A DNA stretch of 64,000 nt from a bacterium (GCA_963674595.2 CAXXFV010000026.1:1-64000); one strand, 5' to 3'. Shown: positions 25,269 to 62,669, numbered from the stretch's first letter. Notes: generated by a model from the letters alone, not told the origin. Translations and numbers: made by a program.

Positions 25269-25481
25269 TTGTGGAATTTCTCCATAAAAATGTGTTTTTA
25301 ATAAAATCGGTTATGATACCGGAACCTGGAATGTATTCATATTCGGTACATTAAAATGATCTATAAAAATTTGATCCCGCCAAAGATTTTTCTTTGGTAA
25401 ACACTGATTTAAAGTACAAAGCCGGGTTGAAATTGTCAATTGTAATTATTTTTAGTAAATCAAACAATATTGGAAGGTGAC

Positions 25482-36594: not shown

Positions 36595-36785
36595 GCATTG
36601 TGTATCCGGCCGGTGACAAGCCGCCCTATGACAGATTTAACGACCTGGTGAAAAAGAAAAAAAGTTTAAAAAGCGCCAATGAGGTAAAATCCGACAAAAC
36701 GGGCCAGGTTGACCGGATAACAAAAGTTGAATCTGATGAAAAGAAAAAGACCTTTAAACGCATCGGTTTTGAAGGCATTAAATAG
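36561..36785 (+). CDS. Small basic phage protein
   Basis: RBS GAGGTG; carries the YPAGDK tag. Confidence 0.7.
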   Translation: MPRLFDKETGVSIVYPAGDKPPYDRFNDLVKKKKSLKSANEVKSDKTGQVDRITKVESDEKKKTFKRIGFEGIK

Positions 36786-36967
36786 TGTCCATTCCCAACA
36801 ATACATTAACGAGTCTTGAAGTAAAGCAGTTTTTGGACAAGATGCGGAACCTGCACAAACCTGTTTCGCTTTCCATCAACCATGCGGGAAACGGTAAAGA
36901 CGAGTTTACGCTGTATATTGAAAAAATGCGGATTAATGACGTGTCCGATATCGACCTTATTCACTAG
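36785..36967 (+). CDS. Small hypothetical protein (60 aa) directly upstream of a conserved RNA motif/terminator
   Basis: TAGTG coupling to the upstream gene. Confidence 0.55.
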   Translation: MSIPNNTLTSLEVKQFLDKMRNLHKPVSLSINHAGNGKDEFTLYIEKMRINDVSDIDLIH

Positions 36968-36985: not shown

Positions 36986-37055
36986 CGGTCATTCTGAAAC
37001 ACGAAGCCGAATTTAGCGGCGCTGAAAAGGCGTGACGCTGGGTTCGGCTTTTTTT
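36986..37055 (+). terminator. Terminator with overlapping conserved 5' motif (copy 1)
   Basis: CGGTCATTCTGAAACACGAAGCCG, then a long hairpin closing TTCGGCTT plus a T-tract. Confidence 0.7.
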
Positions 37056-37077
37056 ATTGTGAAAACGAAAATCCACT

Positions 37078-38565
37078 ATGAAGCTAATCAATGAAACACG
37101 ACGTTTTTTTATTGCCGGGTCGCCGGAACTGATAGATATGAACGGCATTGTCGGGAACGGCACAGAAATAAAATTTCCAAAATCATACGATACACTTGGT
37201 TATTTCATTCCCGAAAACAGGGACAAGATAACGTTTACGGATTTTAAACAATGTGAACAATGGATGGAACATATGAAACAATTTAAATCAATGGAGCCGC
37301 AGCACAAAACGTTAACCGGTGTGCGCACAAAAGCCGTCATATTATCGGATGATGATTTTGACGCCATGCAGTCTTTTATGGTTGCGCCCGAGACCTTTGC
37401 CAAAGAGGACTTTAAGGTTTTTGATTTGTGGCTTGCCAATAATTTTGCCGACAGGGACGGTGAACGGTTTGTGAAAAACATTCTCGAATCATTCAACCAC
37501 ACCATTGTCGGGAAATCGCTTTTGTACGGTCATTTTTGGGGACCTCCCGGAGAGGGCCGTTTTTACAAATCACGCATTGAAAAGATGACGATTGAACAGG
37601 TGCTGGAGATTGTAGGTCCGCATCCGTCTAAAAAGTTTAAAGAACATTTGGAAATGATTGAAAAGATCGACGGCGGATTGTATTACCTGGTGCCCACCAT
37701 GTATATGCTGGCCGACCATCCGGACATACGAAAGATCGAAGCCGGTATTATTTCCGATGTGTCCATCGGGTTCAGTGCGCCGACGCGCGTTGAATATAAA
37801 AACGAGTCCGGCCAGACCTTGTGGTACGAATATAAAAATACGGACCAGTTTGAGGGTGAAGCGCTGGAGGGATCATTTGTTTTTCTGGGGTCCCAGTTCG
37901 GCGCCCAGTCTTCAAAAAGTATTGATCAAAACGACTATAAAAAATTTGTTGAAAACCTGCCGCAAAATCTGCGGGACGCCATTGCCGACCATTTTGGAAA
38001 CCAGGTCGCGACACAAACAAAAAAGGGAACATCCAAAAAGGCGGAGGGCATGGTTACATTTCAACTCAACTCGATTGAATTTTGTAAAGAATTCGATCCT
38101 GAAAATCTTGACGGCTGTATCAAAGAAACACAGACAGCCCTTGACCAGGAAATCGGGCATTTGCAGAACGAACTGAGCGAGCAGATAACCGCTCTGAACG
38201 CTGTGACCCAAAGTATGGCGTTGAAGGAAAAGCATCTGGCTGATTTTTATAAAGCCCTGGGAAGCGATGAATTGACCGTTGACGGGGTAAAAAACATCAA
38301 GGCGCTGGCTGACGAATACAAAACCGAACTGATTCGCGAGACCGTCAAGTATGCATGCGGTTCCGGGATGCTTGAGCAAAAAGACGCAGGGCAGCGCAAG
38401 GCCCAGCTTGAAGCATGTTCCGTTGAGGACATAAAAGAACGGCGTGATGAATACCGCAAAATCTTTGATGAAAAAAATCCTTTAAGGGGACAAACACCGG
38501 AACACGATAACAACCATTCACAACATTTTGACGGCACCAACCAGCGTGCCTATGTCATGAATTAA
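37078..38565 (+). CDS. Prohead protease/scaffold protein
   Basis: N..DRDGERF, GKSLLYGH, DVSIGF and EGSFVFLGSQ protease-like motifs, then a coiled-coil C-terminus. Confidence 0.8.
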   Translation: MKLINETRRFFIAGSPELIDMNGIVGNGTEIKFPKSYDTLGYFIPENRDKITFTDFKQCEQWMEHMKQFKSMEPQHKTLTGVRTKAVILSDDDFDAMQSFMVAPETFAKEDFKVFDLWLANNFADRDGERFVKNILESFNHTIVGKSLLYGHFWGPPGEGRFYKSRIEKMTIEQVLEIVGPHPSKKFKEHLEMIEKIDGGLYYLVPTMYMLADHPDIRKIEAGIISDVSIGFSAPTRVEYKNESGQTLWYEYKNTDQFEGEALEGSFVFLGSQFGAQSSKSIDQNDYKKFVENLPQNLRDAIADHFGNQVATQTKKGTSKKAEGMVTFQLNSIEFCKEFDPENLDGCIKETQTALDQEIGHLQNELSEQITALNAVTQSMALKEKHLADFYKALGSDELTVDGVKNIKALADEYKTELIRETVKYACGSGMLEQKDAGQRKAQLEACSVEDIKERRDEYRKIFDEKNPLRGQTPEHDNNHSQHFDGTNQRAYVMN

Positions 38566-38579
38566 CGGAGGTACTCTAA

Positions 38580-39041
38580 ATGTCTGATATATTACGCAAA
38601 GGTGGAAACAAGGGAAATCCTGTTGTTATTTCAGCGGTCCCGGATTCCACATTTAAAAGTGAAATTGACGCGCTTATCACGGCCGGTACGAATGTCGTGG
38701 GCAAGCTTGTTTCGCTGACATTTGCCAATGATTACGAAGTGACGAGTCCGGCTGACGACGCCATTCCGGACGGCGAGATCATTTCGTGCAAAAAAGCGAC
38801 CCTTGCTGCGGGAAATTCCTACATCCTGACCGTGGCGCTTTTTCATTATACCGACCAGAACGGCAGTTCACACACACCGGTCTGCATCCGCGAGCTGGAT
38901 TACAACGGCACCATTGCTTTGCAGGATTCTGTTATTGTCAACGGTACCACCTATCGAAATCTGGATGACGGCGGAACAGGCGGCTGGGGCGCTGTGATTG
39001 CCAAAGACACCAGTAATTCCAAAGTACATGTATTGTTTTAA
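38580..39041 (+). CDS. Putative capsid decoration/cement protein
   Basis: Small beta-rich protein between protease and capsid genes. Confidence 0.6.
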   Translation: MSDILRKGGNKGNPVVISAVPDSTFKSEIDALITAGTNVVGKLVSLTFANDYEVTSPADDAIPDGEIISCKKATLAAGNSYILTVALFHYTDQNGSSHTPVCIRELDYNGTIALQDSVIVNGTTYRNLDDGGTGGWGAVIAKDTSNSKVHVLF

Positions 39042-39053
39042 GGAGGCCAGTAA

Positions 39054-40184
39054 ATGTTTAAACATCGATCTGCACCATTACGTAACGACGAAAATTTTTG
39101 GGTTTCCAAAGATGGCCTCGACGTCGGATTATACAAAGAGGCTGACCGAAAGGGTATGTCCTTCAGCATGCTGCTTGAAGCGATAAAATCCGAAAAACAG
39201 CAGCAGGCGTCGCCCTATTTGGGGATGACCAAAAGTGAAGTTATTGAACAAAAACAGGCCATGCGCAGGGCCGGACAAATTGCACCGCTGACCGCTTTTG
39301 AAGAGTGTCTGGCAAAGGCCGGCATTCAGGTGGCCGGAAAATACACCGATCCTGTCAGCAAGTTTTTTGAATATTCGGATACCGACGTTCTGTTCCCGGA
39401 GTTTATTGCCGACAAAGTTTACACCGGCATGTTGTCTGCCTCACTGGTCCCGGAATTTGTTTCCATGGAAACCGTGGTCAGCAGCAAAACTTTTCAAAAA
39501 CTTTATCTGGACGATTCTGAAGTAGAACGTGAACTGCGCGAAGTGGGTGATTTGGAAGACCTGCCGGAAACCAAAATTTCCGTGGGCGACAAATCCGTTC
39601 ACCTCGGCATGTACGGACGATATATCAAAACATCCAAACTGGACCTGAACCAAATGCGGGCCAATGTTGTCGGTAATTTTATGGACAAAATCGGTTTGCA
39701 AATCGGTATCGACCAGACGGACCTGCTGATCTACCGGCTTATCAACGGTGACGGCAATGCCAACACCACACCCGGAACAACCAAAACAGCAAGCGCATCC
39801 GGCGCAGGCGCCATTGACTTTGAAGACACCATTACCTGGGCAACCGCTTTGCCGACGCCCTATAAAATGGACAAGTTTGTGGGCCGCAAAGCCAACCTGG
39901 TAAAATGGTATAACCGTTTGTATGACGGCACCACCACCAGTGTGGGCAACGATTTTATGGGCATTTTCCCCAAACCGTTTGAATGGGACCGCTCTGTAGT
40001 CACATCCAACTATTTCTGGGGTGTCGATTCCCGTTACGCGGCTGAATTCATCACCATCGGCGGCGTACAGGTCAATGCCGAAGATATCGTTCGTCAGCTT
40101 GCCAAGGGTATTGCAGTTTACACACTATATGAATTTGCCATTGCTGATAAAAACGCTGTCGCAAAGTTTGACATGTCTTCATAG
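39054..40184 (+). CDS. Major capsid protein (HK97 fold)
   Basis: LFPEF, V...EDLPET.I.......L..YGR, LINGDGN; size and position fit. Confidence 0.85.
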   Translation: MFKHRSAPLRNDENFWVSKDGLDVGLYKEADRKGMSFSMLLEAIKSEKQQQASPYLGMTKSEVIEQKQAMRRAGQIAPLTAFEECLAKAGIQVAGKYTDPVSKFFEYSDTDVLFPEFIADKVYTGMLSASLVPEFVSMETVVSSKTFQKLYLDDSEVERELREVGDLEDLPETKISVGDKSVHLGMYGRYIKTSKLDLNQMRANVVGNFMDKIGLQIGIDQTDLLIYRLINGDGNANTTPGTTKTASASGAGAIDFEDTITWATALPTPYKMDKFVGRKANLVKWYNRLYDGTTTSVGNDFMGIFPKPFEWDRSVVTSNYFWGVDSRYAAEFITIGGVQVNAEDIVRQLAKGIAVYTLYEFAIADKNAVAKFDMSS

Positions 40185-40242
40185 TGAGGTGGTCTTTTGA
40201 ACTGGATCTATGTAAAAAGCGCAAAAAAACAAACCACTGACC

Positions 40243-40440
40243 TTGGTGGATGTGTCGACCCGGGATGCAAAAAACAAAAACGAGTATTTTTGTATGAACA
40301 TCAGTGAAAAGATGATTGAACAGGGCACACCGGCAAAAGTGCCGGACAATTCGTTTTTTCAGGGTTTTATCGCCCTGGGTGAACTGGAACAGGCAGACCC
40401 GCCTAAAAAACAGTCCCCTAAAAAAACGGCGGCAAAATAA
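40243..40440 (+). CDS. Small phage protein; an in-frame upstream ATG at 40210 is followed immediately by TAA
   Basis: Lys-rich tail typical of post-capsid proteins. Confidence 0.5.
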   Translation: MVDVSTRDAKNKNEYFCMNISEKMIEQGTPAKVPDNSFFQGFIALGELEQADPPKKQSPKKTAAK

Positions 40441-40592
40441 TGAAAAAAACGGCTCATCATCATTCTTTATCTGCTGTCGTGGTTTGGCCTTTCGCCGCTG
40501 TTTGCGAAGGAGCCGGACCGGGCCGTAACACAGGAACCGACAGCAGAACATGTTCAACAACATATAAAACGGACCAATTCAGGTGATTATTT

Positions 40593-41063
40593 ATGTCTTA
40601 TATAACAGCAAATGACGTGAGAAACCGGCTGCGGATAACCGACAGCACCATTGACGTGACAGACGCCATGCTCACCTCCGCCGCTATGATACCGGCCGGA
40701 GACGCGTGGATCGACAAAATTCTGTCACTCAACGGGACCGGTTTTGCTTCTTTAAGCGCAACAGACCAGGCCCTGGTTAAAGCGGCTGAAATTGCTTTTG
40801 TGGCCCACAAGGTTGTCAATTCCGCACCAAGACGCGGATCCAAAACCGGGCCCATTACCATAAAGCCGGTCCCTTCACAGGATAAAAAGGCCCTGGCCGA
40901 CGAGCTGCAGCGTGAATGGGAGCTCTATTTTAACGCACTCGGCTACTCGCTTGTTTCTGTTTCCGTCAGTTCTGTGGGCAGCAACGACTATATGCCCGAC
41001 GGTGAAGACCTGACAAACATTGATTTTAGCGATACTGAAAACGATTTTTCGGAATGGGCTTAA
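40593..41063 (+). CDS. Head-tail adaptor-like protein
   Basis: MSYIT..DVR..L start; position in the operon. Confidence 0.65.
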   Translation: MSYITANDVRNRLRITDSTIDVTDAMLTSAAMIPAGDAWIDKILSLNGTGFASLSATDQALVKAAEIAFVAHKVVNSAPRRGSKTGPITIKPVPSQDKKALADELQREWELYFNALGYSLVSVSVSSVGSNDYMPDGEDLTNIDFSDTENDFSEWA

Positions 41064-41066
41064 ATC

Positions 41067-41546
41067 ATGACTGACCAGGAAATGTTTCGATCGGATTGTT
41101 TGGCGAACGGCGCTTCCGCAACCATATCCAATACCAGCGGAACTCAATGCCCATGCATGATATGGCGTGATTCTGAAAACCCGGCTTACAGTGCAGAATA
41201 CCATCGGTTATATCCTGCTGCTGAGGATTGCGGCGGCGCCGGTTTAATCAACCGCAGCGTTACCACCACCAACATTAAGGCTTTTTTTACGCCCCTGAAC
41301 ACCACCATCAGCCGGCTGTTTCAAACAAAAAGCCTTCAGGAGATCATTGGTGAACACCAAGATGCCGACCTGGCCATGGTGGGCGCGGTGAACACGGCCA
41401 ACGGACAGTTTGTGGACATTTCCGGTCTGGTGGAACGGGAAGACAAAATCACCTATAACGCGGTAGAGTATGTAGTCAGGCATTTTTATGACCTGAGCAA
41501 TTCCGAACGCGTGGGCCAGGTTGCTTTGCTGAAAAGGAAAAGCTGA
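41067..41546 (+). CDS. Head closure/neck protein (putative)
   Basis: CPC...C.G.G motif, DKITYN..EY.V; position in the operon. Confidence 0.55.
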   Translation: MTDQEMFRSDCLANGASATISNTSGTQCPCMIWRDSENPAYSAEYHRLYPAAEDCGGAGLINRSVTTTNIKAFFTPLNTTISRLFQTKSLQEIIGEHQDADLAMVGAVNTANGQFVDISGLVEREDKITYNAVEYVVRHFYDLSNSERVGQVALLKRKS

Positions 41547-41655
41547 TACGTTGGTCCGCAGATAATAAACAGAGAAATTTTCAGGCGGCACTGTTGCAGA
41601 ATCCGCCTGAAATATCAGATACAATAACGAATGAAATCAGAAAAGCGGGTAAATT

Positions 41656-42147
41656 TTGAGTATTCGACGAACATATTTGATAGATGACGTGCAGAAATGC
41701 GTTTTTCGCTTGCTGCGGCAGCTCACCGGGGCCGAGAGTCCCTGGACAAGCTGGAACGTCATTGAAGGTTATCCGGAAGACCGGGTGTTTGAGGAATTTG
41801 ATAAACCCTTTATCTATGTGCTTAAACCGGTTGTCACCGGTGCCTACAGACAACAGGGCGGACTGCCGAATTACCTGATGGAAATGGTCATCGGCATGTG
41901 GGACGACCGCAAAACCGGCGGTCCGGAAGAGATCAATATCATCGGTTCGCACCTGCTCGAACTTTTTATGAATCCGCAGTCTTTGTATTCGAAAAAATTC
42001 AATGTCACGCTTGGAACCACCAGTTTTACAGACACGACATTGGCGGCCCAGGGTCTGCGCATAAAAAACATTAAAGGACCCAAAGAGCTAAAAGTCAAAG
42101 CCGTGAAAGAGTTTCGGCGTGAATTCACTTTATTTTTAAGGAGCTGA
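41656..42147 (+). CDS. Tail terminator-like protein (putative)
   Basis: Position just before the tail tube; EGYPE...PFIYV. Confidence 0.55.
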   Translation: MSIRRTYLIDDVQKCVFRLLRQLTGAESPWTSWNVIEGYPEDRVFEEFDKPFIYVLKPVVTGAYRQQGGLPNYLMEMVIGMWDDRKTGGPEEINIIGSHLLELFMNPQSLYSKKFNVTLGTTSFTDTTLAAQGLRIKNIKGPKELKVKAVKEFRREFTLFLRS

Positions 42148-42149
42148 AA

Positions 42150-42941
42150 ATGGCATACAACGATCAATTAGGCGCATTGCAGTCAAATGACATTATTGAC
42201 GGTCAGTTTACCCTGCATCGTGTTTACCGGCACGATGCGGACGTGGCAACGGGGATTGTACCCATCAACATTTCCGGTATTCAGGACGTATCGGCTGAGG
42301 CCATGGCCCCGCAAATGTCCCGCGAAGTGTTTCAGCAGGGCGGCGGCAGCGACAGTCTGATCAGTGAACGCAACTTTCGTTACAGCGGCACCATCCGTCT
42401 TAAAGCAGGCAAACTGGATGATTTTCTCACCGCTATTTACGGCAAAACACACTCGACCACCGGTGAGGCCGCGTTGGTGCACAGACCTTCTGTTTTTCCG
42501 GCCATAACCCTGGAATCCATTTGCCGTGCCGACGACAATACCACACACCTTTTTTCCAAAGTGTACCAGGAACTGATTTTAAAACCCTGGAACAACAATT
42601 CACCCATGGAAGACGAAGAAGTGGACATTCCCTTTTACTCCATGCACGATCCGTTTTTGATCTGCGCCGGTGCTGAATTGTTCTATGACAAATTCAACGG
42701 CGACGGTTCAACAACCGACTTTACATTATCCGCAACACCATTGACTGCTGTAGACACAACAGACGCGGCCCGCGAAGACTGGGTGCTTGACAATGCTGTT
42801 TTTGTTGCGGTTAAAAATTCCGGCGATGACCAGTCCACACGACAGAAAAGCGGCGTGACATTGACCAGCACAACATTGTCCTTTACAACCGCCCCGGCAG
42901 CATCGTCTGTGGTTTCTTATCTGGGCATCAAGGCCTATTAA
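42150..42941 (+). CDS. Major tail (tube) protein with a C-terminal Ig-like extension
   Basis: Position; C-terminal GDGSTTDFTL...F.TAPA..S.V motif. Confidence 0.65.
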   Translation: MAYNDQLGALQSNDIIDGQFTLHRVYRHDADVATGIVPINISGIQDVSAEAMAPQMSREVFQQGGGSDSLISERNFRYSGTIRLKAGKLDDFLTAIYGKTHSTTGEAALVHRPSVFPAITLESICRADDNTTHLFSKVYQELILKPWNNNSPMEDEEVDIPFYSMHDPFLICAGAELFYDKFNGDGSTTDFTLSATPLTAVDTTDAAREDWVLDNAVFVAVKNSGDDQSTRQKSGVTLTSTTLSFTTAPAASSVVSYLGIKAY

Positions 42942-42963
42942 TTTTAACCAAGAAGAGAGAACA

Positions 42964-43209
42964 ATGAAAAGAGAATACATAACGGAATGTTTATACAGGG
43001 CTGCTGCGATTGTTTTAACCACCGGGCAGCAGCCCGATCATATCATTCGTGTACGCGGCGACAAAAGCAGGGCCGTGCTGACCTTTCACGTTGAAACCGA
43101 TGTGATTGAAAAACTGGAAAGCAATGAACTGCTTGTGGACCCTGTTGCCTTTAAAGATGTTTTTATTCCATTAAAAAGAAAAGTATTCAGAGTAATAGAC
43201 GAGGACTAA
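42964..43209 (+). CDS. Small hypothetical phage protein
   Basis: Intact, coupled ORF. Confidence 0.6.
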   Translation: MKREYITECLYRAAAIVLTTGQQPDHIIRVRGDKSRAVLTFHVETDVIEKLESNELLVDPVAFKDVFIPLKRKVFRVIDED

Positions 43210-44111
43210 ATGAAAGCTATAGATTTGTTAAAAAACGCCAACCAGAACAAAATCAAATCCATTGAATTTGTAATTCCAATTGACGACAACAACGGTATCG
43301 ATACCGTGCTGCAGGCGCCGGATCTGTGGAGCCTGAAAGAAGAGCAGGAAAAAGTATATCACGCCAAACTTGTTGAACTGTGTCAGGAAGGATATGACCA
43401 GTACCCGATCAACGAACAGGACTTTAATAAAGAAGTGGAAAACTATCTGGAAAATCTGAAAAAATCGGGTTCCAAAGACATAGACAAGGCCGTGGAAAAC
43501 TATAAAAAAGACCGGCCAAAATCTTTGGCAGACCAGTTGGCCCAGCGCACCAGCAAGTACCGCACGATTTTTGAGATATTGCCCAAGTTTTTACGCTACA
43601 AGGAAAACAACAAACTGTTGTTTCCCACGGCTGAAGAGCAGAAACAGTTTAAGGACATATTGTCCAGCAACAACAAACTGTTTGAACTGCTGACCGGGAA
43701 ATACATTGAACTGTCCAAACTGATCAATGAGGAAGACACGGAAAAAAACTCCGTGAAGCCGGGGAATGGCAAGAGTACAGACTCCAAGTAGCCCTGGCGG
43801 ACCGGTTTCAGTATAAAGGCCCGTTTGATCCACAGCTTTTAGATGATTTGAAAAACCCGTATCGGCGGATATTGCTCATTCACAGTTTGCAAATGCCCAA
43901 TTTTCAGGACCATTTGTTTAAACTGCTGGCCGAACAGTATCCCGAGATTTTGAAGAATATGCTCAACATTCACGGGACGTCCATCGTTAAAATGCTGGCC
44001 GGCAAAAACGGGCACAAGATTAAGAGCATTTTTAAGGAAGAAAAGAAAAAGAGACCCAGCGAACAAATCGTTGTAACACCGGATGGTAAACGTATTAGGT
44101 TAAGGTCATAG
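43210..44111 (+). CDS. Tail assembly chaperone G (43210-43791) and GT by -1 frameshift
   Basis: Slippery A AAA AAC at 43743-43749. The -1 frame is open from there to 44111. Precedes the tape measure gene. Confidence 0.8.
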
Positions 44112-44113
44112 TT

Positions 44114-47100
44114 ATGAGTGATTTTACATGAAATTGTCCATTAGCAGCAGGCGGGACTAGCGTTTCAGATATTATTGAACCGTTTAACCTTGTAATAGAT
44201 GTACTAGAAGAGGCCGTTAATACATTAGGCCTTTTCGATGAAAAAATTGAATACACGACAAAAAGAACAGGTGTTGATTTAGTTGATGCACTTATTAGAT
44301 CAGCTGACTTTTTGGTTAAGAATGATGAAGCAGTAATAAAAAGCACACGGAGTCTTGATGAGTTGGCGTTAGCAGTGGCTGATATAAAGATGAAAAATGC
44401 TAGTTTATTGGGATTAGGGCCAGTTATCGATAAAATTACCGGATTTAATACAAAAGTTGAAGAACAAGCAAAAAAAATAATTGCAGCAAGAGACGCTACA
44501 AAGGAATTAAGTGAAAAAACAGGTGTTTATAACGATGCGCTGTATAAAGTCAATCAATATGGTCCAGAAGCTGCTCAGGCGATTTTTGGAATAAGTGAGG
44601 AAACAGATAAAAATAATGATCTTATCAGCATAGCTATTGAGAAACATAAGCAATTTACTGAACAACAAAAAGCCCTTAATGACGCTGGAATTGTGACGAC
44701 AGCATCCATTAGAAGTCAAATTGATTCTCTTGAAAGTTTGTTCCCTGCAGTTGAAAATGATAATTATGCTTATAACCAATTATATAGTATGATACATGAC
44801 CTATATGTGGAAATTGGTGATACGAAAGGATTAAAAGAATTTCGAGAAAAATGTGGTAATGTTACTAATACATTTATACCTTTAAATGTACAGGGGAGAG
44901 AGCTTGCCAATAATATTGACAAAGTTAGACGTTCTCAGGTGGATAATCATCCGGTACTAGAAACCTCAACAAAAAAGGCCAAAGATTTAAAAGAAGAAAC
45001 TGAAGAGACGACTATATCTTTTAAAGATTTTGCCAGTTATGCAAATAAAGTGGCTGAAAAATTGCCAGGTTTAGATAATAGTGTTAAAACGGTGACTTCT
45101 GCTATTTCATCTTTGGCCACAAAAGGTTTTTCCCCTTTGAACATTGCGACAACAGCGGCTTCAGTTGCATTTGGTCTTTTTGGTGATAAAAAGGAAAAAG
45201 TTGTTGTTACCGTTGACCAAATCATTGAGCGTATGGGGGCATTAGGTGTTGAAATTACCAAAACAAAAGATTTTATTGAGGAATTGAGCGACAGCTTTCA
45301 GAGCAACGCGCTGGCGTCCTATACTAAACATCTGGATGCACTTTTAGAAAGGAAAGCCAAGTTAACTTCTGATTATGAAAATACGGATGATGGCGATAAA
45401 AAGGAAAAAATCAATGAAGCTGTCCATAGCATAAATGAAACTATAAATACCGTTATTAAGGAAATAAACAGATTAGTAGAAGCCCTGGTATTTGATGTTG
45501 ATTTTACAGAGACTCTGGACGGATTAAAGTACCTGACAACAGAAGCCGTAAGAATGTTCTCTTATTATGGAGATACATTAAAAGGCACAGGTATTGTTGA
45601 TCTGCTTGAAGAACAAATAAAAAAATCTGCTGAATTAAGGGAAGGACTTGATAAAGACTCTAAAGCGTATGCGGATGTGGAAACTCAAATTATGGCTGCC
45701 GCCCAGGCAATGATAAACTTAGGGGCTTTGCAAAATGAAGTTGCGGCATTGCTTGCCCGGTTTGATATGTCTTTAGTCGATTTTGCCGGTGGTATAAAGG
45801 ATAAATTTGGAGACATTTTTGATAATAGCTCTGTTTTTGACGCTCTACAAAATCAGATGCAGGGATTTTTTAATTCCTTATTAGATGCCGAACAGAATAT
45901 GGACACAGAAGCCTATGAAGAGATGTCTAAAAATATTTATGCTGTTGCTCAAAAGATGAAAGATATGGGTATTTCCGGTGAGGAGTTAAATGCGAAACTT
46001 GAACGTGTTGGTTTGTCTTATACAGAGCTGGCCGAAAAATTTAATTTGTCGAGTGAAGAGATCAATGAAGCAGCCGGTATCGTTGGCGCGCTAAGTACAG
46101 AAATGGCAGATTTAGGAGAGGAGCTGAAAACAATTGATCCTGATAGTGCTGCCTATGATGAGCAGGTTGAAAAAATAGTTGCCGTTGCACAGGCCATGCT
46201 GGAGATGGGTGCATCAAACGCCGAAGTAAATGCTGCTCTTGCCGCTACAGGTTTGACATTGGAACAGGTTACAGGCAAGGTTGCCGGTTTGGAAGACGCC
46301 TGGCGTACCGCAACGTCTGTTATGACTGGTGAATGGTCAACATTTGAAGATGAGGTTGCCGGTGCTAATAAAACTATAGACGATTTAATGTTTTTCAATG
46401 TCGATTTGGATACAACGGATGCGGATGAGAGCCTTCTGGCACTGATTGAAAGTTGGGATGAATATCTTGCAAAACTGGACCCGAATTCAGAAGCCTATCA
46501 ACAAGCTGCTGAAATGGTTAACGGGCTGAAACAACGTTATAATGATCTAACAGGAGCAACTCTTGAGACGACAGAAGCGGCTGTAACAATGGCAGATGCT
46601 TTTCAGTTTGATACTGATTTCTCCAGTCAAAAAGATGAATTAGATACGATAATAGAAAAAGCGCTGGCAATTGGTGATTATTATGGTGATGCTTTTGATA
46701 CCACGGCAGTGGAAGAATTATTGGCACGTTCAATAGAAACTAACCAGGCAATGTTGAATGATCTTGATCCGACAACACAGGCTTATGAGGAATTACAGAA
46801 ATCAATCTGGGAAGGTGAAGCAGCTCTTGCTGTTATGCGCGGTGAAGTGGAAACAACAAATCAGTATTATGAGCAACATGGAATTGTAATTGCCGGTGTA
46901 ACTGATGGTATAGAAGAGAATACGGATGCTGTTAATGATAATGCCGGTGCCATAGAATCATGGTCTGAAATTTTTAATAAATCCATAAATCAAATGTCTT
47001 CGGAATATAATCAGTTTGAAAAAGATGCGGAAACGGCCAGTAAGCTTATAGATGAAATATTATTTTTCAATATTGATCTTGACGCATCTGATCTTGATGA

Positions 47101-49273
47101 GCAGTTGGAAGCGGCCATGGCTTCTATGTATGCTTATATCGGCACGCTCGATCCGGACAGTGAAGCCTACCGGCAAGCCATGGAAACCCTGCAGGGATTG
47201 GCTGACAAATATTATGAGATAAAATATAAAACAGATGATTTGGCTGAAAGCACAGAAACTGCCATGCGCTCTGCCGGAGAGCCGTCAAAGTTTTATGAAC
47301 AGGCATATAAAAAATTACTTGGTGAAATTGATAAAGCTAATGATGAAATAAATTCTTTAATGACCAAAAAAAGAATTATTGAAATTAAAATTGACATGGC
47401 AACTCAAAAAATTGAAGAAACTGAAAAATTAATTGAAGATTTAAAACTGAAAAAAATTGAGGTTGAATTTTATATTTCTCAAGTAAATGAAGAAATAGAC
47501 AAACTCAATGATTATATAGCCAAAAAACAGGAACAGCTTGAAAAAATTGAAATTGCAATTGAAATAACACAGGCTGAAATTGATAAAATAAATGAAAAAA
47601 TTGAGACCCTTGAAGTACAGAAACTTGAAATACAGGCACAAATTGATGATGCAAAGATAAATATTCAGGAATTGAATCAGTTTATTTCAGACAAAGAATT
47701 AGAATTACATGAATTAAAAATTCAATTCATGGCAGATGTCGATAGTTTAAACGAACAGATGGCAACGCTTGGTGCTGAGTTTGATGAGAAAATTAAAGAA
47801 TATAACCTTAACAAAATAAGCATCTCTACTGAGATAGAAAACGCAGAGGTTTCCAAGTCAAAGTTGCGAGATATTATTGATTTACTCGGGACCGATATGG
47901 ATACGTTGCTTTCCGAAGGGCTGGATTTTTATAAAGTGTCCACTATGCTTGAAGATATAACGGGTAAAAGTCAGACTCTGGAAGTCCAGTGGGAATCCAT
48001 GTTAAAGACAATGTTTAACGAGTTTTCTGATTTTGAAACAGACATGAAAACCGCTTCCGATGCGATTGATCAGTTAATGTATTTTGATGTTGATTTGGAT
48101 ACTACCGAAGTTGATGAGCAAATTAACGCTGCTATCTTCCGAATGCAGGATTATCTGAAAACGTTAAGTCCGGAATCTCAAGCTTATAAAGATGCCAGTG
48201 CTTCCCTGACGCAACTTACCAAAAAATTTGAAGAGATGGGCGGTGTGTTGGATGAGGAAAAAGCATTACAGTTTAATGCCGAGTATGCAATACAGGAAGT
48301 TAAAAATTTCGATGATCAAATAGACGGTTTATACACTCAATTACAAGAAAATGATTTACAATTTGATATAGACCAGGATACTTTTGCCACTGAAATGGAA
48401 GCTCTTGATCAAGAACTTGCAAATTTATATACCGAGTACAATAATAAGCAAATAGAAATTGAAGCAGATATACAAGCGGCAAAGGAGAAAGTTGAAGCTT
48501 TTGAGGATCAAATAACGGCACTGGAAGACCAAAAGGTCGCAATAGAAACAGAAATTCAAGAGGCGAAAGATCAATTAGATTTATATCAATCGGATTTAGC
48601 TACCCTTGAAAACCAAAAGGTGAAAATTACGACTGATATTGCTCAAGCACAAACTAAAATTGATGAGTTAGAGCTTGAACTCGCCGGTCTTGAAGAAGAA
48701 AAAATGCAGATTGAAGCGGATATAACCGAAGCTGAAGCCCAGTTAGAAGCTTTTAAACAAGAAATGGCAAAACTTGAGCAGGACAAACTTGAAATTGATG
48801 CCGCAATTGATACTGCTTTAGAAAGATTAACTGAACTAGAGACAAGGCTTAATGACATGGAAACCTCGAAAACAGTTAATATTGATTTATATGTTAATAA
48901 TAAATCAAAAGATGCGCAATCCAAATATCATACCGGCGGGCTGGTTACGGCGCATACGGGACAGTTGTTCCCTAATGAGCGGATTGCCAAAGTGCTGAGC
49001 GGTGAATATGTGCTGCGGCCGGCGGTTGCCGAACGATTTGGTGCGGACGCGTTGAACAATTTTAACGCATCGCTCAATCCCAATGCGCTTGTGTCCGACC
49101 ACAGCCTGTCGCGTCAGGATGCCCGGGCCATTGTTCAGGAATCACGGCCTGTTCAGGTGCACATCCACGAAGCCACCCGGCGCACCTGGGCTGAAGTGAC
49201 GGACCATAGTATTTATGGAAACGTTAAAAAACGTGAACGATTTTTTGAAAGTGAAGGGAGTCCGTTTAACTAA
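44114..49273 (+). CDS. Tape measure protein; disrupted 5' end (ATG 44114, TGA 44129), long ORF open from 44132
   Basis: More than 1650 aa, helical; C-terminal YHTGGLV...E.IA.V..GEYVL motif typical of tape measure proteins. Confidence 0.8.
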
Positions 49274-49674
49274 TGGCATTAACGACAGGCATTCGGATTG
49301 TTATCGGCGCGGTTTATGTTGATTTTTACCGCGAAGAAGTGGAAGACATTGTGTTTAAACCTTTGGTAGAGTATATGGTGCTTGAGGGCCATAAACAGGC
49401 CCCGGACCTGATAAAAATCGGCTCAACACAGTCCATGATCGAAATGTCATTTACGGACTGGAACAGCGCCACCAAAGCCAAGGTCGACCAGGTTGTAAAT
49501 GCTGACTGCGAAATGACCCTGTATTATCAATATGCTTATGATCCGACAGTTTATAAAAACGTTATCGTTATGGCTGTTGATGATGTTAAAAAGACAACGG
49601 AATATTTTAATTCTGCTGATATTAATTACGGCAGAGTAAAGACACGTTATTCACTTACTTTTGCGGAATGTTAA
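49273..49674 (+). CDS. Distal-tail-like protein
   Basis: TAATG coupling to the tape measure gene; resembles 53330-53755. Confidence 0.55.
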   Translation: MALTTGIRIVIGAVYVDFYREEVEDIVFKPLVEYMVLEGHKQAPDLIKIGSTQSMIEMSFTDWNSATKAKVDQVVNADCEMTLYYQYAYDPTVYKNVIVMAVDDVKKTTEYFNSADINYGRVKTRYSLTFAEC

Positions 49675-49675
49675 T

Positions 49676-52600
49676 ATGCCCTATTACACAGATTTGCCGG
49701 AAACATGGCAGGAAGAACTTGAGAAAAGGACCGGTGCACGCATCCTTATAGAAGCGGTGCTGGACCCGGATGGTGAAGCCAGGATCATTCCCTCGAAATA
49801 TGATATTGTGGATATTTCGCCCATTACCAATGTCCGCGACCTGGATATTGAATATACGGACCGTTCGGTTGTGCAGGACGTGACCCTGACCTTTAACGAT
49901 CCGGACGGCTATTTTAGCTACAAAAATCCGGCAAGTCCTTTTCACAACATGGTTGGCGAGTTGTATGAATATACCAAAAGCGGATCGAATAGCATAAAGT
50001 TGATTGATAATACCGGTGTGGAATTTGGCCACAACCAAAAGCTGGAAATTAATGACAACACAAATTGCGAACATGTTTATGTAAACAGTTTTACAAAAGC
50101 CTCGGGCAGTATCTATTATCATCAGCTTGGGATTGTGGGTGCGCTTGTCAACAGTTATAAAGGCGGCACAAAAATATATACCTTGCCGGTTGAAAAAAAG
50201 GAGATTTTGGTGCGTGTGTATATGGTCGGCGCCACGGTGCCCATTCACATGTTTCGCGGAAAAATCATTGCCCTGCCCGAAAGCGAAGCCGGAAAAGGTT
50301 TTTTGACCATTTCTTCCATTAAAAAGTTTTTGCTGGATGAAGAGCTGCGCGGCGCAGAAACCGGCGCCGATAAGCTGAAACGTATCAATACCAACGGCGA
50401 TTTGGTTGATACCATCACCTGGAGTGAAGGCAGTTCCGGTACCCTGGACCGGTCAAAAGTCATTGTTAAAGATAATGCCAAGTTGAGAAACTGGACTTGT
50501 GAATTCAGCAGTAATACCGATTTTGTGCTCTATTCCGAGGACATTGGCAGCGGTGTTGCCGGAAAGACTGAAGCAGAACAAATTTTTTCTATTTCCGGCT
50601 TGGACAATTATTTATATTCTCCCCAAAGAATCATTGCTGACAAAAACTATGCTTATGTAATATCACGAAGTAATGCTTTAACAATTTGGGATATTCGTAA
50701 TAAAAATAATATACAAATGGTTGGCGTTATTTCCGGCATTGGGGCGCCAAATTATCTAAATACACCGACAGACATGGTCATTAAAAAAAACTATGCTTAT
50801 ATAACATCTGCTGATAATGCTTTAGTAATTATTGATGTTTCCAATCCAAACAATCCGACAAAAGTAGGGCACATGGTTGGTGCCGGCAGCTCAAATTATC
50901 TTGAATGGCCGGAGTCCTTGTATATCGAAGATAATTATGCTTATATTGTTACAAACTATGATGAAGTTTTACTAATTATAGATATTTCTGATCCAAAAAA
51001 TCCGGTACAAGTTGGACATACTGCAGACGGTTCATCCGGGTTAGCTTTATGTAAAAAAGATAATTATGTATATACTTGTGGTACTAAACCTTCTAATTAT
51101 AATGATATTAATGTTTATGATGTTTCTGATCCAAGTTCACCAATATTAATAAATACTATAACACATTCTAAATTTTGCTACAAGATAAAAATACATGACG
51201 GTTATTTATATGCTTTGTTTCTAAATGATGATATTTTTAATATTTATAGTTTATCTGATCCGACAACTCCAACTCTGGTGTCAAGCTTATCCGGGGCTGG
51301 TAGTCCAAATTATCTTGATGCCCCAAAATATTTTAATTTTTATGAGCAATATGCTTTTATTTCAAGTGTGGCTGAAAAAACTATAACCATTATTGATATC
51401 TCCGATAAAAGCAATCCAACATTTTTTTGTAAATATGATATTATGTATTGTAATGATATTTTTGTTTATGGTGATTATATTTATCTTTGTTGTGCTCCTT
51501 ATTTTGAATATCGTATTATTAAATGGTCTTGTTCTGACTCTGAAAATAGTGGTAAAGAGAGCATACAAATTCCCTTTGCAGCCTGGGGCGGGACCCGGGC
51601 CGAATCCGACTCGGTACAGTTTACCACCACCATAAATTTTGACAATCAAAATGTTGTGCAGGCCATTTATAATCTATATACAAAATACATCGGTATGGAT
51701 AACAAACTGTTGGGGTGTTCGTCCTTTTTTGAGGACAAGGTCATCGGCACCTTAAACAGCGCCGTGCAACCCACTGGCCCCCCTGATCCCATTCATCCGG
51801 AGGACCCCACGATTTCTATCAAAATATCTGTCCCCATTGTCATCGGCACAAATGATGTCCTGACCATTACCGAAGGAAACACCACCGAAGACATTACCGT
51901 CATTGAGGGCAATACGGTTACATCAAGTTTTCCGCCTGTTATCACCCTTCCGGTCAGTCCCCTGACAAACGGATTCACCAGGGCCGCTACAGTGACATGG
52001 AAAAAAAAGGCTGCTTACGATCCTGCCTACAACTTTGACAGGGAATATCATTACTGTGATATTATGAACTATTGTGTTTCTTTGTCTTTTGATAAGCAAA
52101 TGACACGTTTGCAGGCCCTTGAAGTGTTGACCCAGCATTTGGATGGATTTTTGTTTTCCGACAGTTGGGGTGTGGAAAAGCTGTTTGTGTTTCGGCCCAA
52201 ATACCGATCAAGTGTGCCGGATGTTACCAAAACAGTGAATTTGAAAAAACCGAATCCCGTTATTGAAACCGTGAATCTGGTCAACGAAATCCGTTGTTTT
52301 TACGGATATGATTATACCAACAGCAAGTATTTATATGAATATGTGTATCCGGAAAATGATACGGACAATGACAGTTTTTTAAGAAACGGATTCAAAAGAA
52401 CAAAATCCTTTTACCTGCCGGGTGTTTTTAATGAATCTGTTGCCAAAAATATGACAAGGCACAAATATTTGATCTGGAAAGACGGGCTTTCGCTGATTCG
52501 TTTTAATTTAACATTAAAAGGATTGGTAACGGAAATTGGTGATGCTTATAACCTGATCAGTGAAATGCCGGACATTGATACCCTTGTGGAAGTTGTCGGT

Positions 52601-52726
52601 ATTGGCGGGATAAAATTGTTGAATGGCATAAACATCGAACTGGTTGGACTTGATGTTGAAAAAGTATTAAATAACTGGTTTTTACTTGACGACAGCGGGA
52701 TGGGAACGGCCCGCGTATTATGGTAG
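49676..52726 (+). CDS. Tail tip/hub protein with an internal LVIVD-repeat beta-propeller
   Basis: NYAYI....L.IIDVSNP.NP repeats at ~50580-51540 inside a phage-like scaffold. Confidence 0.75.
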   Translation: MPYYTDLPETWQEELEKRTGARILIEAVLDPDGEARIIPSKYDIVDISPITNVRDLDIEYTDRSVVQDVTLTFNDPDGYFSYKNPASPFHNMVGELYEYTKSGSNSIKLIDNTGVEFGHNQKLEINDNTNCEHVYVNSFTKASGSIYYHQLGIVGALVNSYKGGTKIYTLPVEKKEILVRVYMVGATVPIHMFRGKIIALPESEAGKGFLTISSIKKFLLDEELRGAETGADKLKRINTNGDLVDTITWSEGSSGTLDRSKVIVKDNAKLRNWTCEFSSNTDFVLYSEDIGSGVAGKTEAEQIFSISGLDNYLYSPQRIIADKNYAYVISRSNALTIWDIRNKNNIQMVGVISGIGAPNYLNTPTDMVIKKNYAYITSADNALVIIDVSNPNNPTKVGHMVGAGSSNYLEWPESLYIEDNYAYIVTNYDEVLLIIDISDPKNPVQVGHTADGSSGLALCKKDNYVYTCGTKPSNYNDINVYDVSDPSSPILINTITHSKFCYKIKIHDGYLYALFLNDDIFNIYSLSDPTTPTLVSSLSGAGSPNYLDAPKYFNFYEQYAFISSVAEKTITIIDISDKSNPTFFCKYDIMYCNDIFVYGDYIYLCCAPYFEYRIIKWSCSDSENSGKESIQIPFAAWGGTRAESDSVQFTTTINFDNQNVVQAIYNLYTKYIGMDNKLLGCSSFFEDKVIGTLNSAVQPTGPPDPIHPEDPTISIKISVPIVIGTNDVLTITEGNTTEDITVIEGNTVTSSFPPVITLPVSPLTNGFTRAATVTWKKKAAYDPAYNFDREYHYCDIMNYCVSLSFDKQMTRLQALEVLTQHLDGFLFSDSWGVEKLFVFRPKYRSSVPDVTKTVNLKKPNPVIETVNLVNEIRCFYGYDYTNSKYLYEYVYPENDTDNDSFLRNGFKRTKSFYLPGVFNESVAKNMTRHKYLIWKDGLSLIRFNLTLKGLVTEIGDAYNLISEMPDIDTLVEVVGIGGIKLLNGINIELVGLDVEKVLNNWFLLDDSGMGTARVLW

Positions 52727-52736
52727 GAGTTTTATT

Positions 52737-53330
52737 ATGACATTTGTAACGGGCGATGTTCTGCCTGCCTCTACAGCAAACGCATGGCCGAGAAGCTATA
52801 TGGAACAGGAAGATTTGGTGAGTTATGCTATTACTTTGACCGCATTTCGATATGCAGACGGCGCCATTCCGGACACGGTTGGAGCGGCCGGCAATCCAAA
52901 ACTTGTTATGAGCGGTTGGGGATCCGGCACCGGTATTTTTCAGGGTGAAGATGCACAGGAGGTACTTAAGACAGAGACTTTATGTTTTGAGTTTGTTTTG
53001 CCGGAATGTTATGTGGCCGGACAAAGCGTAATCCTGAGTATAACCGCGCGTATTAACGACGCCGGGGGCAATTCGCATACGTTCGATTCGCTGGATGTAG
53101 AAGCCTATGAAATAGCCGAAGCTGGAACAGCCGAAAGTGATATTTGCGCCACAGATGCGCAGACTCTGGCCGAAATAATGACGGCTTATTCTTTTACCAT
53201 TACTTCGACAAATTTGGGGCCGGGTGATTTGGTGAGGATATTTATCAGAACATCGATCCAGGGCAGTTTCGGTGGATCGTTCAAAGCTGAAATAGGCGGG
53301 GCAACTATGAAACTGGATATTAAAGGCTGA
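52737..53330 (+). CDS. Minor tail protein
   Basis: MTFVTGDVLPASTAN start; RBS AGGAG. Confidence 0.6.
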   Translation: MTFVTGDVLPASTANAWPRSYMEQEDLVSYAITLTAFRYADGAIPDTVGAAGNPKLVMSGWGSGTGIFQGEDAQEVLKTETLCFEFVLPECYVAGQSVILSITARINDAGGNSHTFDSLDVEAYEIAEAGTAESDICATDAQTLAEIMTAYSFTITSTNLGPGDLVRIFIRTSIQGSFGGSFKAEIGGATMKLDIKG

Positions 53331-53755
53331 TGGAAGCAATTCGAATAGATTATATCGACGGCGGCATACTGCAAACGATTACGTTTGATCATTTTGAATT
53401 TGAGACATTGATTGAAAAAGAAAAACAAAAGTCTGAAGTTCAATGGCTGCAAGACAATTCGCCTGTTTTAACCTACACAAGTGTGCGATGGAAAGAGTTC
53501 AAGCTTGTTTTGCAGGCAAAATACAGCTATACCTCAACACAAATTGAAATTTTGCGGGCCGTTGATACGGTGCTGTATTTTTATTATGATTATGTAAAAA
53601 ATCCGAAAATGATGATTCCGGTCAAAGTTTTACCGGACACGCCGACCTATTTTTTTGGCGGTGATAAGGACGCGGAACCGCGTTTGGTTCTGGACTTGAT
53701 AGAAACAACGGGTAATAAGACCTTTACATTTGAATCACAACCACTTGGAAGGTAA
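53330..53755 (+). CDS. Distal-tail-like paralogue
   Basis: Shares the IRI...D..L.FYY.Y...P pattern with 49273-49674. Confidence 0.5.
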   Translation: MEAIRIDYIDGGILQTITFDHFEFETLIEKEKQKSEVQWLQDNSPVLTYTSVRWKEFKLVLQAKYSYTSTQIEILRAVDTVLYFYYDYVKNPKMMIPVKVLPDTPTYFFGGDKDAEPRLVLDLIETTGNKTFTFESQPLGR

Positions 53756-53758
53756 AAT

Positions 53759-54025
53759 ATGGCTATATGGAGCAAAAATGATATGATCATTACAATAAGA
53801 GATGCAACAACCGGCGAACTGGACACAGGGACCTATGCTATAAAATATCAACCTGTGGACCAGCCCTATGATACCGGCGCTATAACGGCTTCTCAATTGC
53901 CGTCGTTATCCAATTACAAACCCGACGAAGACGGTAATACGGAACAGGCTTATGATATTTATAAAGACGGCACAAAAATCGGGCGGATATGGGGCCCGGA
54001 TTTGCTGCCGGATATAGGCGTCTGA
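53759..54025 (+). CDS. Small hypothetical phage protein
   Basis: Intact, coupled ORF. Confidence 0.6.
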   Translation: MAIWSKNDMIITIRDATTGELDTGTYAIKYQPVDQPYDTGAITASQLPSLSNYKPDEDGNTEQAYDIYKDGTKIGRIWGPDLLPDIGV

Positions 54026-54040
54026 TAAATTTGTAAATAA

Positions 54041-54103
54041 CGGTCATCGTGAAACATCGAGCCGGATGTATCAATAAAGTTTTTGATATGTCCGGCTTTT
54101 TTT
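54041..54103 (+). terminator. Terminator with overlapping conserved 5' motif (copy 2)
   Basis: CGGTCATCGTGAAACATCGAGCCGG, hairpin closing TCCGGCT plus a T-tract. Confidence 0.7.
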
Positions 54104-59676: not shown

Positions 59677-59701
59677 GTTGGGTTCTTTTTTTGAACCCAA
59701 C
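59677..59701. terminator. Hairpin at the end of the phage operon, between convergent genes
   Basis: GTTGGGTTC-loop-GAACCCAAC. Confidence 0.55.
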
Positions 59702-62082: not shown

Positions 62083-62271
62083 TAATAATTACTCCAAAAA
62101 ATAGTCTCAGATGATAATTTTTTTTCTAATTGATTATGTAGATTCTGACCAAATAAGTTTAGTAGTCTAAATACAAAAATTTACCAGTTGCCGTTTTACC
62201 TTACCATTAACCATTTTTTAATTTGCACTTGCAACTGCGCACCGGAACCGGTTTCGGCACCTTAAAGTTAC

Positions 62272-62631: not shown

Positions 62632-62669
62632 CTTTTAAAGGTTGCTGCTTTACAGCTCCATTTCATGAT

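Follow-up and report, generated by a model that had tools for sequence, protein, structure and literature searches.

A conserved bulged RNA hairpin overlapping two internal terminators of a prophage late region: a candidate small-protein-dependent antitermination module

We have analyzed a 64,000-nucleotide stretch of bacterial DNA (CAXXFV010000026.1, positions 1-64000, hereafter the window), which is contig C26 of a 6.6 Mb genome in 37 contigs, and found that two intrinsic terminators inside its prophage region begin with copies of the same 24-nucleotide element. This motif is a conserved, covarying RNA hairpin. Its 3' strand is at the same time the base of the 5' arm of the terminator, and the same arrangement recurs in other prophages and phages, usually with a small open reading frame (ORF) of about 55 codons directly upstream. 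The element thus has the features expected of a local antitermination switch, for which the small protein would be the candidate factor.

A hairpin fused to two internal terminators

Copy 1 of the motif (CGGTCATTCTGAAACACGAAGCCG) is located at positions 36986-37009 and copy 2 (CGGTCATCGTGAAACATCGAGCCG) at 54041-54064, both on the plus strand, and the two are identical at 19 of 24 positions. An earlier note on this DNA had placed two elements with a common start sequence at these sites, and this was correct. Both 24-mers give one and the same fold, ((((..(((........))))))), with a loop of eight nucleotides, and this is the proposed antiterminator hairpin. In copy 1 the outer stem joins 36986-36989 with 37006-37009 (C-G, G-C, G-C and a U.G pair), followed by a two-nucleotide bulge, CA, on the 5' side, an inner stem of UUC (36992-36994) with GAA (37003-37005) and the loop UGAAACAC; in copy 2 the inner stem is UCG:CGA and the loop UGAAACAU. 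The earlier description of a CGGU:GCCG hairpin thus holds for the outer pairing and was incomplete in that it missed the inner stem of three base pairs. Four of the five differences between the copies amount to two compensatory swaps in this inner stem (U-A to C-G and C-G to G-C), and the fifth sits in the loop. A core of 14 specified bases, CGGTCATNNTGAAACA, has two exact matches in the window; with up to two mismatches allowed there are three matches against 0.52 expected, a number reached by one of 100 shuffled sequences. Across the 6.6 Mb genome the same core has three exact and nine one-mismatch matches, and among all of these a terminator follows only at the two sites in the window.

Terminator 1 (37003-37055, plus strand) has a 5' arm that begins within the motif (GAAGCCG...); its GCCG at 37006-37009 pairs with CGGC at 37045-37048 and is followed by seven T residues at 37049-37055. 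Terminator 2 (54059-54103, plus strand) forms a stem of 16 pairs at 54059-54098, in which GCCGG (54061-54065) pairs with CCGGC (54092-54096), with seven T residues at 54097-54103. At both window sites the interiors of the terminators are unrelated, as had been stated before. Folded as a whole, region 1 adopts the terminator at -33.2 kcal/mol (z -4.6) and region 2 at -25.4 kcal/mol (z -5.75), so that the two-conformer folding proposed in the earlier note returns the same hairpin in both copies and a terminator in both full regions. As the 3' strand of the hairpin is the base of the terminator's 5' arm, the two structures are mutually exclusive, and the earlier claim to this effect is borne out by the sharing of this 3' half. 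Its seven 3' nucleotides belong to the terminator stem at both window sites and likewise in all nine of the relatives that were folded, where the terminator stem of minimum free energy starts at about motif position 17-20. At site 1 the terminator is worth -29.9 kcal/mol versus -4.7 kcal/mol for the hairpin, and over 15 sites the values range from -18.1 to -39.9 kcal/mol for the terminator and from -4.3 to -8.2 kcal/mol for the hairpin. With energies so much weaker than those of the terminator, the hairpin cannot win unaided.

Both terminators stand immediately in front of structural genes. The ATG of a gene for a 495-residue protein (37078-38565, plus strand), which opens the block with the major head protein, lies 19 nucleotides past the T-rich tail of terminator 1, and that of a 431-residue signal-peptide protein (54122-55417, plus strand), which heads the block ending with the tail fibre, lies 13 nucleotides past the tail of terminator 2. 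Among the 14 sites with a callable start, relatives included, the first ATG that begins a long frame is found 0-42 nucleotides beyond the T-rich tail, and within 32 nucleotides of it in 13 of the 14. Note that the distance of 0 at locus L033 refers to an in-frame ATG inside the T-tract, with the conserved MKLI start 24 nucleotides further, that in L030 the ATG follows directly after the tail, and that the tail in genome G060 is a non-canonical T-tract. Such distances leave little or no space for a conventional promoter between terminator and gene. Judging from sequence, the head and fibre genes would therefore probably need read-through, unless the terminator DNA conceals a promoter.

Relatives, covariation and the accompanying small protein

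Relatives were found through the 495-residue protein, used alone or as alignment A1, in the genomes of the family and in genome, viral and metagenome collections, so that their discovery was independent of RNA structure. The hairpin fused to a terminator directly precedes the homologue of this protein in L024 (= G006), in L025, L034 and L035 (the G007 type), in L045, in L033, and in L030 and L036 (an IMG/VR contig). Divergent forms stand before the homologue in L043, L048 and L027, the latter from a metagenome-assembled genome titled Verrucomicrobia. The inner stems of the relatives read UUC:GAA, CUU:AAG, CC:GG and UUC:GAG, and in L048 a C-G replaces the U.G pair. Other homologues are without the motif, namely L019, L023, those of G009 and G010 (L017, L018, L020), L026, L031, L032, L038 and L040, and a scan of genome contigs with the single 495-residue protein yielded no relative. 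A second copy was not found downstream in 13 kb of G006, 5.5 kb of G007 and 15.5 kb of G167, whose contigs end short of the distance at which copy 2 lies in the window.

A covariance model, R1, was built from 7 sequences and scores its training sites at 40-44 bits. Copy 1 reaches 42.4 bits with R1 and 38.6 bits with model R2, copy 2 39.9 and 35.4 bits; L043 obtains 20.8 bits from R1, which misses L048 and L027. In 151 genomes of the phylum, R1 matches of at least 30 bits occur only in G000, the genome of the window (two sites), G006, G007 and G060, and matches at 25-29 bits in 8 other phylum genomes were treated as false, being inside coding sequence. Viral contigs were searched with sequence patterns. 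The strict pattern CGGTCANNNTGAAACANNNNGCCG returned 5 loci, none of them with the hairpin-terminator architecture, and was set aside as chance-level, and a loose structural descriptor for the motif was too noisy for use. A second viral-contig pattern, in which the UUC/GAA stem was fixed, returned 3 loci, all of them true sites of motif plus terminator, and led to G570 and G569.

Phage G569 has 64,270 bp and is rated 100% complete by CheckV; its terminase, portal and capsid belong to PHROG families that differ from those of the window phage. It carries three motif sites, A (7361-7390, plus strand), B (28571-28600, plus strand) and C (43893-43922, minus strand), with the inner stems UCU:AGA, UUC:GAA and UCC:GGA, respectively. 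Site A lies between portal-side genes and the major-head-protein block, site B between tail genes and a block of signal-peptide proteins with a giant protein of 3883 residues, and the two repeat the two-gate layout of the window. The position of the motif before capsid and fibre genes, on which the earlier note had based its proposal of gated expression, is thus found again in an unrelated phage and, for the head-gene junction, in related prophages, with termination and read-through putative at each. Site C precedes an IS1-like DDE transposase gene on the opposite strand (G569:42657-44472, equal to L100:2657-4472). Upstream of it are a promoter-like sequence of the type TGnTAAAAT, about 45 nucleotides away, and a perfect hairpin of 9 bp.

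As evidenced by an alignment of 8 motif sequences, 56 of 56 stem cells are paired, with double changes in 3 of 7 pairs. The covariation score is 0.276, compared to 0.099 in shuffled alignments, and none of 500 shuffles reaches the observed value; sliding the partner strand by 1-3 columns reduces pairing to 18-55%. For 12 sequences, which are related to one another, all 84 of 84 cells are paired, seven of them with double changes, at a score of 0.290 versus 0.116, again reached by 0 of 500 shuffles. Swaps are also found inside single genomes, between UUC:GAA and UCG:CGA in the window and among the three stems of G569, in each of which one factor must serve every site. The four outer pairs including the U.G, the second bulge base, an A, and the A residues at loop positions 5 and 7 are invariant in 12 of 12 sequences. 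The consensus thus consists of outer CGGU:GCCG, a bulged A, an inner stem of 3 bp with free sequence and an eight-nucleotide loop, NRWAAMAN. The invariant U.G pair, the one-sided bulge and the asymmetric loop mark the element as sense-strand RNA rather than a DNA palindrome, and the invariant features are plausibly those that a protein would read. The search of related genomes and phages suggested in the earlier note has produced both homologues, in prophages and phages, and covariation. Rfam gave no match in the whole window at gathering thresholds; in five motif loci at E <= 1 it gave only an unrelated small nucleolar RNA model, at 28 bits versus a cut-off of 100 and elsewhere in L055.

The ORF upstream of copy 1 (36785-36967, plus strand; 60 residues) starts with a GTG, overlaps the stop of a preceding 74-residue ORF and is the candidate trans-acting factor. 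Its family is rare, with conserved homologues of about 55 residues. A homologous-protein search with the 60-residue ORF returned only itself, and a profile search of 1.84 billion representatives gave 25 proteins at E <= 1e-3, 22 of which have 52-85 residues and three of which are long proteins with partial repeated matches. AlphaFold2 predicts a helix, a beta-hairpin and a short helix (H10-22, E27-33, E41-48), with a mean predicted local distance difference test score of 79. The profile of this family, A6, matches 4 of 167 phylum genomes, G000, G006, G007 and G060, the same four that carry R1 matches of at least 30 bits among the 151, and in the phylum of L027's genome it matches 1 of 401 genomes, L027's own. 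The A6 ORF lies 18-101 nucleotides upstream of the motif in the window, L024, L033, L030, L027 and G060, and directly upstream in G570. The window fits the definition that we propose for this family, an A6 ORF on one replicon with the bulged hairpin whose 3' half is shared with a terminator, with copies at 35-42 bits (R1, R2) and an ORF at 73.6 bits. Comparative support has thereby accrued to the earlier suggestion that the ORF is a candidate regulator, through the co-occurrence in 4 of 167 genomes and the usual position directly upstream.

In L035 the A6 ORF is 549 nucleotides upstream of the motif, with a palindromic repeat in between. This repeat, GGGTTCCCAATCGGGAGATTGGGAACC, stands between small ORF and motif in the loci of the G007 type (L035:2366-2913, L025 at about 9850-9900, L045 at about 850-900, L075 = G007:C4) and could be a mobile insertion, or the assembly could break at the repeat; the G007 assembly places small ORF and motif on separate contigs. 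In G060 the cassette of ORF, motif and hairpin sits beside chromosomal genes (a TonB receptor, an AMP-binding enzyme and a saccharopine dehydrogenase) and precedes a secreted protein with CarboxypepD_reg domains, not a head gene. In view of this chromosomal context, synteny with the head gene does not suffice to explain why ORF and motif go together. The 431-residue protein of the window and the protein downstream of the G060 cassette have no similarity (best E 0.38), and sub-alignment A7, of the G060 type, gave no match in a viral scan. The stretch of about 390 nucleotides upstream of the G060 small ORF contains repeated palindromes, TTGTTGCAAGTTTTGCAACAA and CCTTGCAACAAAT, that look operator-like (L068:19230-19330). 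An 88-residue ORF before copy 2 was considered as a relative of the 60-residue ORF and was unrelated by eye.

The prophage morphogenesis region spans about 25.4-59.7 kb of the window. It comprises the small and large terminase (25470-27685), an IS3-type transposase insertion (30100-31280, minus strand), a ClpP-like protease (32000-33172), the portal (33628-34998) with the small ORFs that follow it, among them the 60-residue one, the 495-residue protein and a 153-residue protein between it and the major head protein (39054-40184), then the tape measure (44312-49273), baseplate-like genes, the 431-residue signal-peptide protein and the 1323-residue tail fibre (55699-59670). The insertion, an IS3-family pair (HTH_Tnp_1 and rve), splits the terminase region from the ClpP-like protease and portal genes, and the prophage is possibly damaged because of it. 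About 280 N-terminal residues of the 495-residue protein are conserved and its C-terminus is coiled-coil-like; it may be a prohead protease or a scaffold. Two more paralogues of its gene are present in the same genome, L019 (G000:C3:6229-7440) and L023 (G000:C10:40890-42101), nearly identical to each other, 45% identical to the 495-residue one and located in other prophage-like regions, with neither an intergenic gap nor the motif upstream. The fibre gene is ended by a separate terminator, a 9-pair hairpin at 59677-59701 without the motif, so that within the window the motif hairpin is on the internal terminators only. The flanking host genes (296-4556, 5301-7103 and 59803-63980) specify proteins with a Fib_succ_major domain and FG-GAP proteins that bear sorting tails for type IX secretion, a content that fits a host of the FCB (Fibrobacterota, Chlorobiota and Bacteroidota) group. 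GGAGG is enriched directly upstream in only about 7% of 2346 long host ORFs.

In more distant relatives (L042, L044, L046/L047 and L049-L054) the slot before the 495-residue homologue is filled by a zinc-ribbon ORF, a promoter and a leader with terminator (L042:648-960; L049:497-765; L044:1-215; L046/L047; L050-L054). The zinc-ribbon ORF of L042 passes the Pfam family Com (PF10122) at 28.7 bits versus a cut-off of 22.9, and three others tested fail. The promoter is a near-consensus sigma-70 type (TTGACA, 16/17 nucleotides, TATATT; 11 of 12 matches), the leader shares GAGYCC(n2-3)AGAGRNCG, and an intrinsic terminator ends a few nucleotides before the ATG. The arrangement gives the impression of another module of small protein, leader and terminator, distinct from the first, at the same junction. 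That one junction can harbour two unrelated small proteins, both accompanied by a leader and a terminator of their own, suggests a regulated gate before the 495-residue homologue throughout the group.

Proposed mechanism and its alternatives

We propose a protein-dependent local antitermination, akin to that of the ribonucleic antiterminator (RAT) systems, in which the hairpin competes with the terminator and the small protein is the best candidate factor; in our estimate the chances that this is correct are evenly balanced. The first 24 nucleotides of the late transcript would fold into the small bulged hairpin. Left unaided, the terminator would win, and polymerase would stop before the head block at site 1 or before the fibre block at site 2. 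A trans-acting factor that clamps the hairpin would block the base of the terminator stem beside the U-tract, and polymerase could read on. The best candidate for this factor is the protein of about 55 residues encoded directly upstream of site 1, which would be made from the portal-side transcript ending at that site and accumulate, so that read-through would open the head and tail genes first and the fibre genes afterwards. A wider reading, which we advance tentatively and hold to be somewhat doubtful, is that of a portable two-part module, consisting of a new RNA-binding fold of about 55 residues and the 24-nucleotide bulged hairpin with its terminator. Such a module might serve as a head-then-fibre timer in phages of KSB1-type, Verrucomicrobia-type and other uncultured hosts, might be interchangeable with the Com-type zinc-ribbon modules and might be recruited to chromosomal secreted-protein genes.

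Several observations weigh against the proposed mechanism. The 23 family members searched have no Pfam (E <= 1) or PHROG family, and no structural match is significant (Foldseek against the PDB, best E 0.52; VIA-align wide, best Z 4.9); in a protein atlas the best feature scores 0.77 and belongs to an unnamed cluster. Nor is the protein clearly basic, with a median isoelectric point (pI) of 7.9 in the family, 8 of 23 members above pI 8 and 6.2 for the window copy. Since neither a known RNA-binding fold or family nor a marked basic character can be recognised in the protein, the mechanism is to be taken as a well-founded proposal and not as a demonstrated system. L045 has no A6 ORF in the 936 nucleotides of upstream sequence covered, G569 has only a marginal A6 candidate 3 kb from site A (E 0.003; hhalign probability 70%), and the small ORFs beside the variant motifs of L043 and L048 show no detectable relationship to A6 (hhalign probability 1.6% and 0.35%). 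Most loci are related prophages, and the co-occurrence counts are therefore not independent. On the side of the RNA, the isolated 24-mers fold weakly, at -3.6 and -5.3 kcal/mol (z -0.95 and -1.08), so that by itself the hairpin of either copy does not exceed shuffled sequence in stability. Site B of G569 and G570 were found by the pattern that fixes the UUC/GAA stem, and G060 and sites A and C of G569 by the structure-aware model, which favours pairing; the double changes in copy 2 and L030 and the variants in L027 and L048 belong to sites discovered with no recourse to structure. Finally, many copies are closely preceded by A/T-rich stretches similar to a -10 element (for example TATAAT 3 nucleotides before the copy of L033), so that a promoter at the motif is possible, and TAnnnT-like hexamers after several T-tracts would allow for a promoter embedded in the terminator.

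These last observations lead to two alternatives in which transcription starts anew. If the terminator were constitutive, it would merely end upstream transcripts, the hairpin would be a 3'-end element for stability, processing or autoregulation, and the genes behind it would be served by a promoter buried in the DNA of terminator or T-tract. The terminators are indeed strong in every case, the hexamers right after many T-tracts (TATTGT, TATTTT, TATGCT, TATGTT) would suit such a promoter, and the message of the small ORF itself would end at site 1; in general phage biology, moreover, the demand for capsid far exceeds that for portal, which speaks for a new promoter. Yet with tail and ATG 0-32 nucleotides apart at 13 of the 14 sites, transcripts from such a promoter would have hardly any leader or none, and its -35 element would fall inside variable hairpin sequence; the promoter also shows no conservation. 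For a 3'-end element, competition with the terminator over a shared stretch of seven nucleotides would serve no purpose, and copy 2 as well as sites B and C of G569 are not beside a small ORF. We consider this explanation unlikely. Somewhat less probable again is a promoter-proximal loading site of the Q, AlpA or N type, with a late promoter just upstream and the motif as the first-transcribed or DNA site at which a factor boards RNA polymerase, the adjacent terminator being only the first one to be ignored. The order of regulator gene, site, terminator and late genes mirrors that of lambda Q, PR' and tR'. The clear promoter that precedes leader and terminator in the distant relatives, with 11 of 12 consensus matches, the -10-like A/T-rich hexamers 3-9 nucleotides upstream of several copies and the TGnTAAAAT-type sequence before site C of G569 also point that way, and small antiterminators that act through DNA sites exist, as reported for AlpA (PMC7969949). 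However, no pair of -35 and -10 elements is conserved at a fixed distance from the motif, and a promoter scan showed nothing between the stop of the 60-residue ORF and copy 1. That the stems stay complementary at all sites of a single genome, that the U.G pair never varies and that the bulge is confined to one side speak for an RNA hairpin, one that must be transcribed in full; a start 7 nucleotides past the -10-like hexamers would remove its conserved CGG arm. Promoters of the Bacteroides type (TTTG...TAnnTTTG) were considered before copy 2 and after the T-tracts and were rejected, TAnnTTTG not being positionally enriched in 2346 host upstream regions; for this reason the perfect TAAATTTG before copy 2 carries no weight.

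A further possibility keeps the antiterminator hairpin and assigns its control to a host factor or to transcription kinetics, with the small ORF as a mere syntenic neighbour. The missing RNA-binding signature of the small protein would fit, as would L045 and G569, which have no clear copy of the small ORF nearby, and the A-rich loop might suit a general RNA chaperone. Set against this, motif and small ORF share their distribution over 4 of 167 phylum genomes, and the pair is also found outside the head-gene context in G060, so that we regard this option as improbable. That the resemblance is due to chance, or that a functionless terminator cassette was spread by recombination, appears very improbable indeed. 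In its favour are the mere two copies in this genome and the lack of thermodynamic significance of the hairpin alone; against it, the core occurs exactly twice, where about 0.5 would be expected even with up to two mismatches, the motif is conserved over distinct phage lineages while the terminator interiors are unrelated, and the covariation lies above all 500 shuffles. Local antitermination through competition of hairpin and terminator, operated by a trans-acting factor, is the explanation with the best support.

Comparison with known systems

To our knowledge, the timing of late genes is understood for only a few model phages (lambda N/Q, P2 Ogr, Mu C), and we know of nothing on phages of uncultured phyla. 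If confirmed, the arrangement described here would represent a new antitermination pair of RNA and protein that is very compact, and its internal terminators would stage capsid and fibre expression within an apparent single operon. Its RNA code is readily testable, consisting of three invariant unpaired A residues, a U.G pair and a stem of free sequence. The Com-like zinc ribbons in the same slot hint at wider, so far unnoticed controls by small protein, leader and terminator before head genes.

The closest parallel is found in the RAT elements with their regulators BglG, SacY and LicT, where a weak, imperfect hairpin overlaps the 5' arm of a terminator and is stabilised by a CAT domain of about 55 residues. 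The present hairpin likewise overlaps and excludes the 5' arm, and the CAT domain is similar in size to the small ORF. The motif differs, with its 24 nucleotides, one-sided two-nucleotide bulge and A-rich loop of eight nucleotides, in being phage-borne and in preceding structural genes instead of sugar operons, and the small protein is predicted as a helix with a beta-hairpin. No CAT_RBD or PRD domain was detected in 23 members of the small-ORF family (Pfam, E <= 1) or in the 41 window ORFs scanned. The RAT-type working assumed in the earlier note is thus retained for the overlap and mutual exclusion, and not for a regulator of the CAT/PRD kind. HutP of the Bacillus subtilis hut operon binds UAG repeats as a ligand-activated hexamer, and its gene lies directly upstream of the terminator that is overridden. 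This layout is also seen at site 1, in G060 and in G570, but gene order is all that the two have in common: the target here is a single hairpin, the motif has no UAG repeats, and Pfam gave no HutP match in the 23 family members.

In lambda, N acting at boxB in nut and Q acting at qut render RNA polymerase processively resistant to terminators from a distant site; for Q the binding site lies in or beside a late promoter, with engagement at a promoter-proximal sigma-dependent pause. Common features would be the phage-encoded late control that overrides terminators and the use of a small hairpin with an A-rich loop, similar to boxB, as a handle for a protein. In contrast to lambda, every regulated terminator here has its own overlapping hairpin, which argues for a local structural competition. 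The nut type has a boxB hairpin with a five-nucleotide GNRA-like loop plus boxA and acts at a distance with Nus factors; the loop of the motif has eight nucleotides and each site abuts its own terminator. The targets of ANTAR proteins are two tandem hexaloop hairpins, the second of which overlaps a terminator. They share the combination of protein and RNA in an antitermination module and differ from the single hairpin with an eight-nucleotide loop, and no ANTAR match was found in the 41 window ORFs or 23 family members scanned.

Mu Com is a zinc-finger protein that binds the mom mRNA (PMC6483171). It resembles the proposed factor in being of phage origin and very small and in acting on an mRNA hairpin, which it remodels, and an ORF of the Com family occupies the same slot in the distant relative L042. 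It differs in that Com activates translation and is not known to antiterminate, and in its four-cysteine zinc ribbon; the window ORF has neither cysteines nor a Pfam match. The conAn system of conjugative elements is bipartite and is described as processive (PMC8191782); it is likewise a module of protein and RNA on mobile elements and does not correspond to the single bulged hairpin. Full-text literature searches, with the papers accessible in part, returned no paper describing the motif or the protein. Of the undescribed protein-dependent system put forward in the earlier note, the novelty stands, in that neither an Rfam match nor a known family was found, and protein binding, termination and read-through stay at the level of prediction. 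On the basis of the domain searches and the form of the RNA, the pair of motif and ORF is set apart from the RAT and HutP families, by a small protein without a CAT, PRD or HutP domain and by a different RNA, and its small, modular parts could serve as an orthogonal genetic switch.

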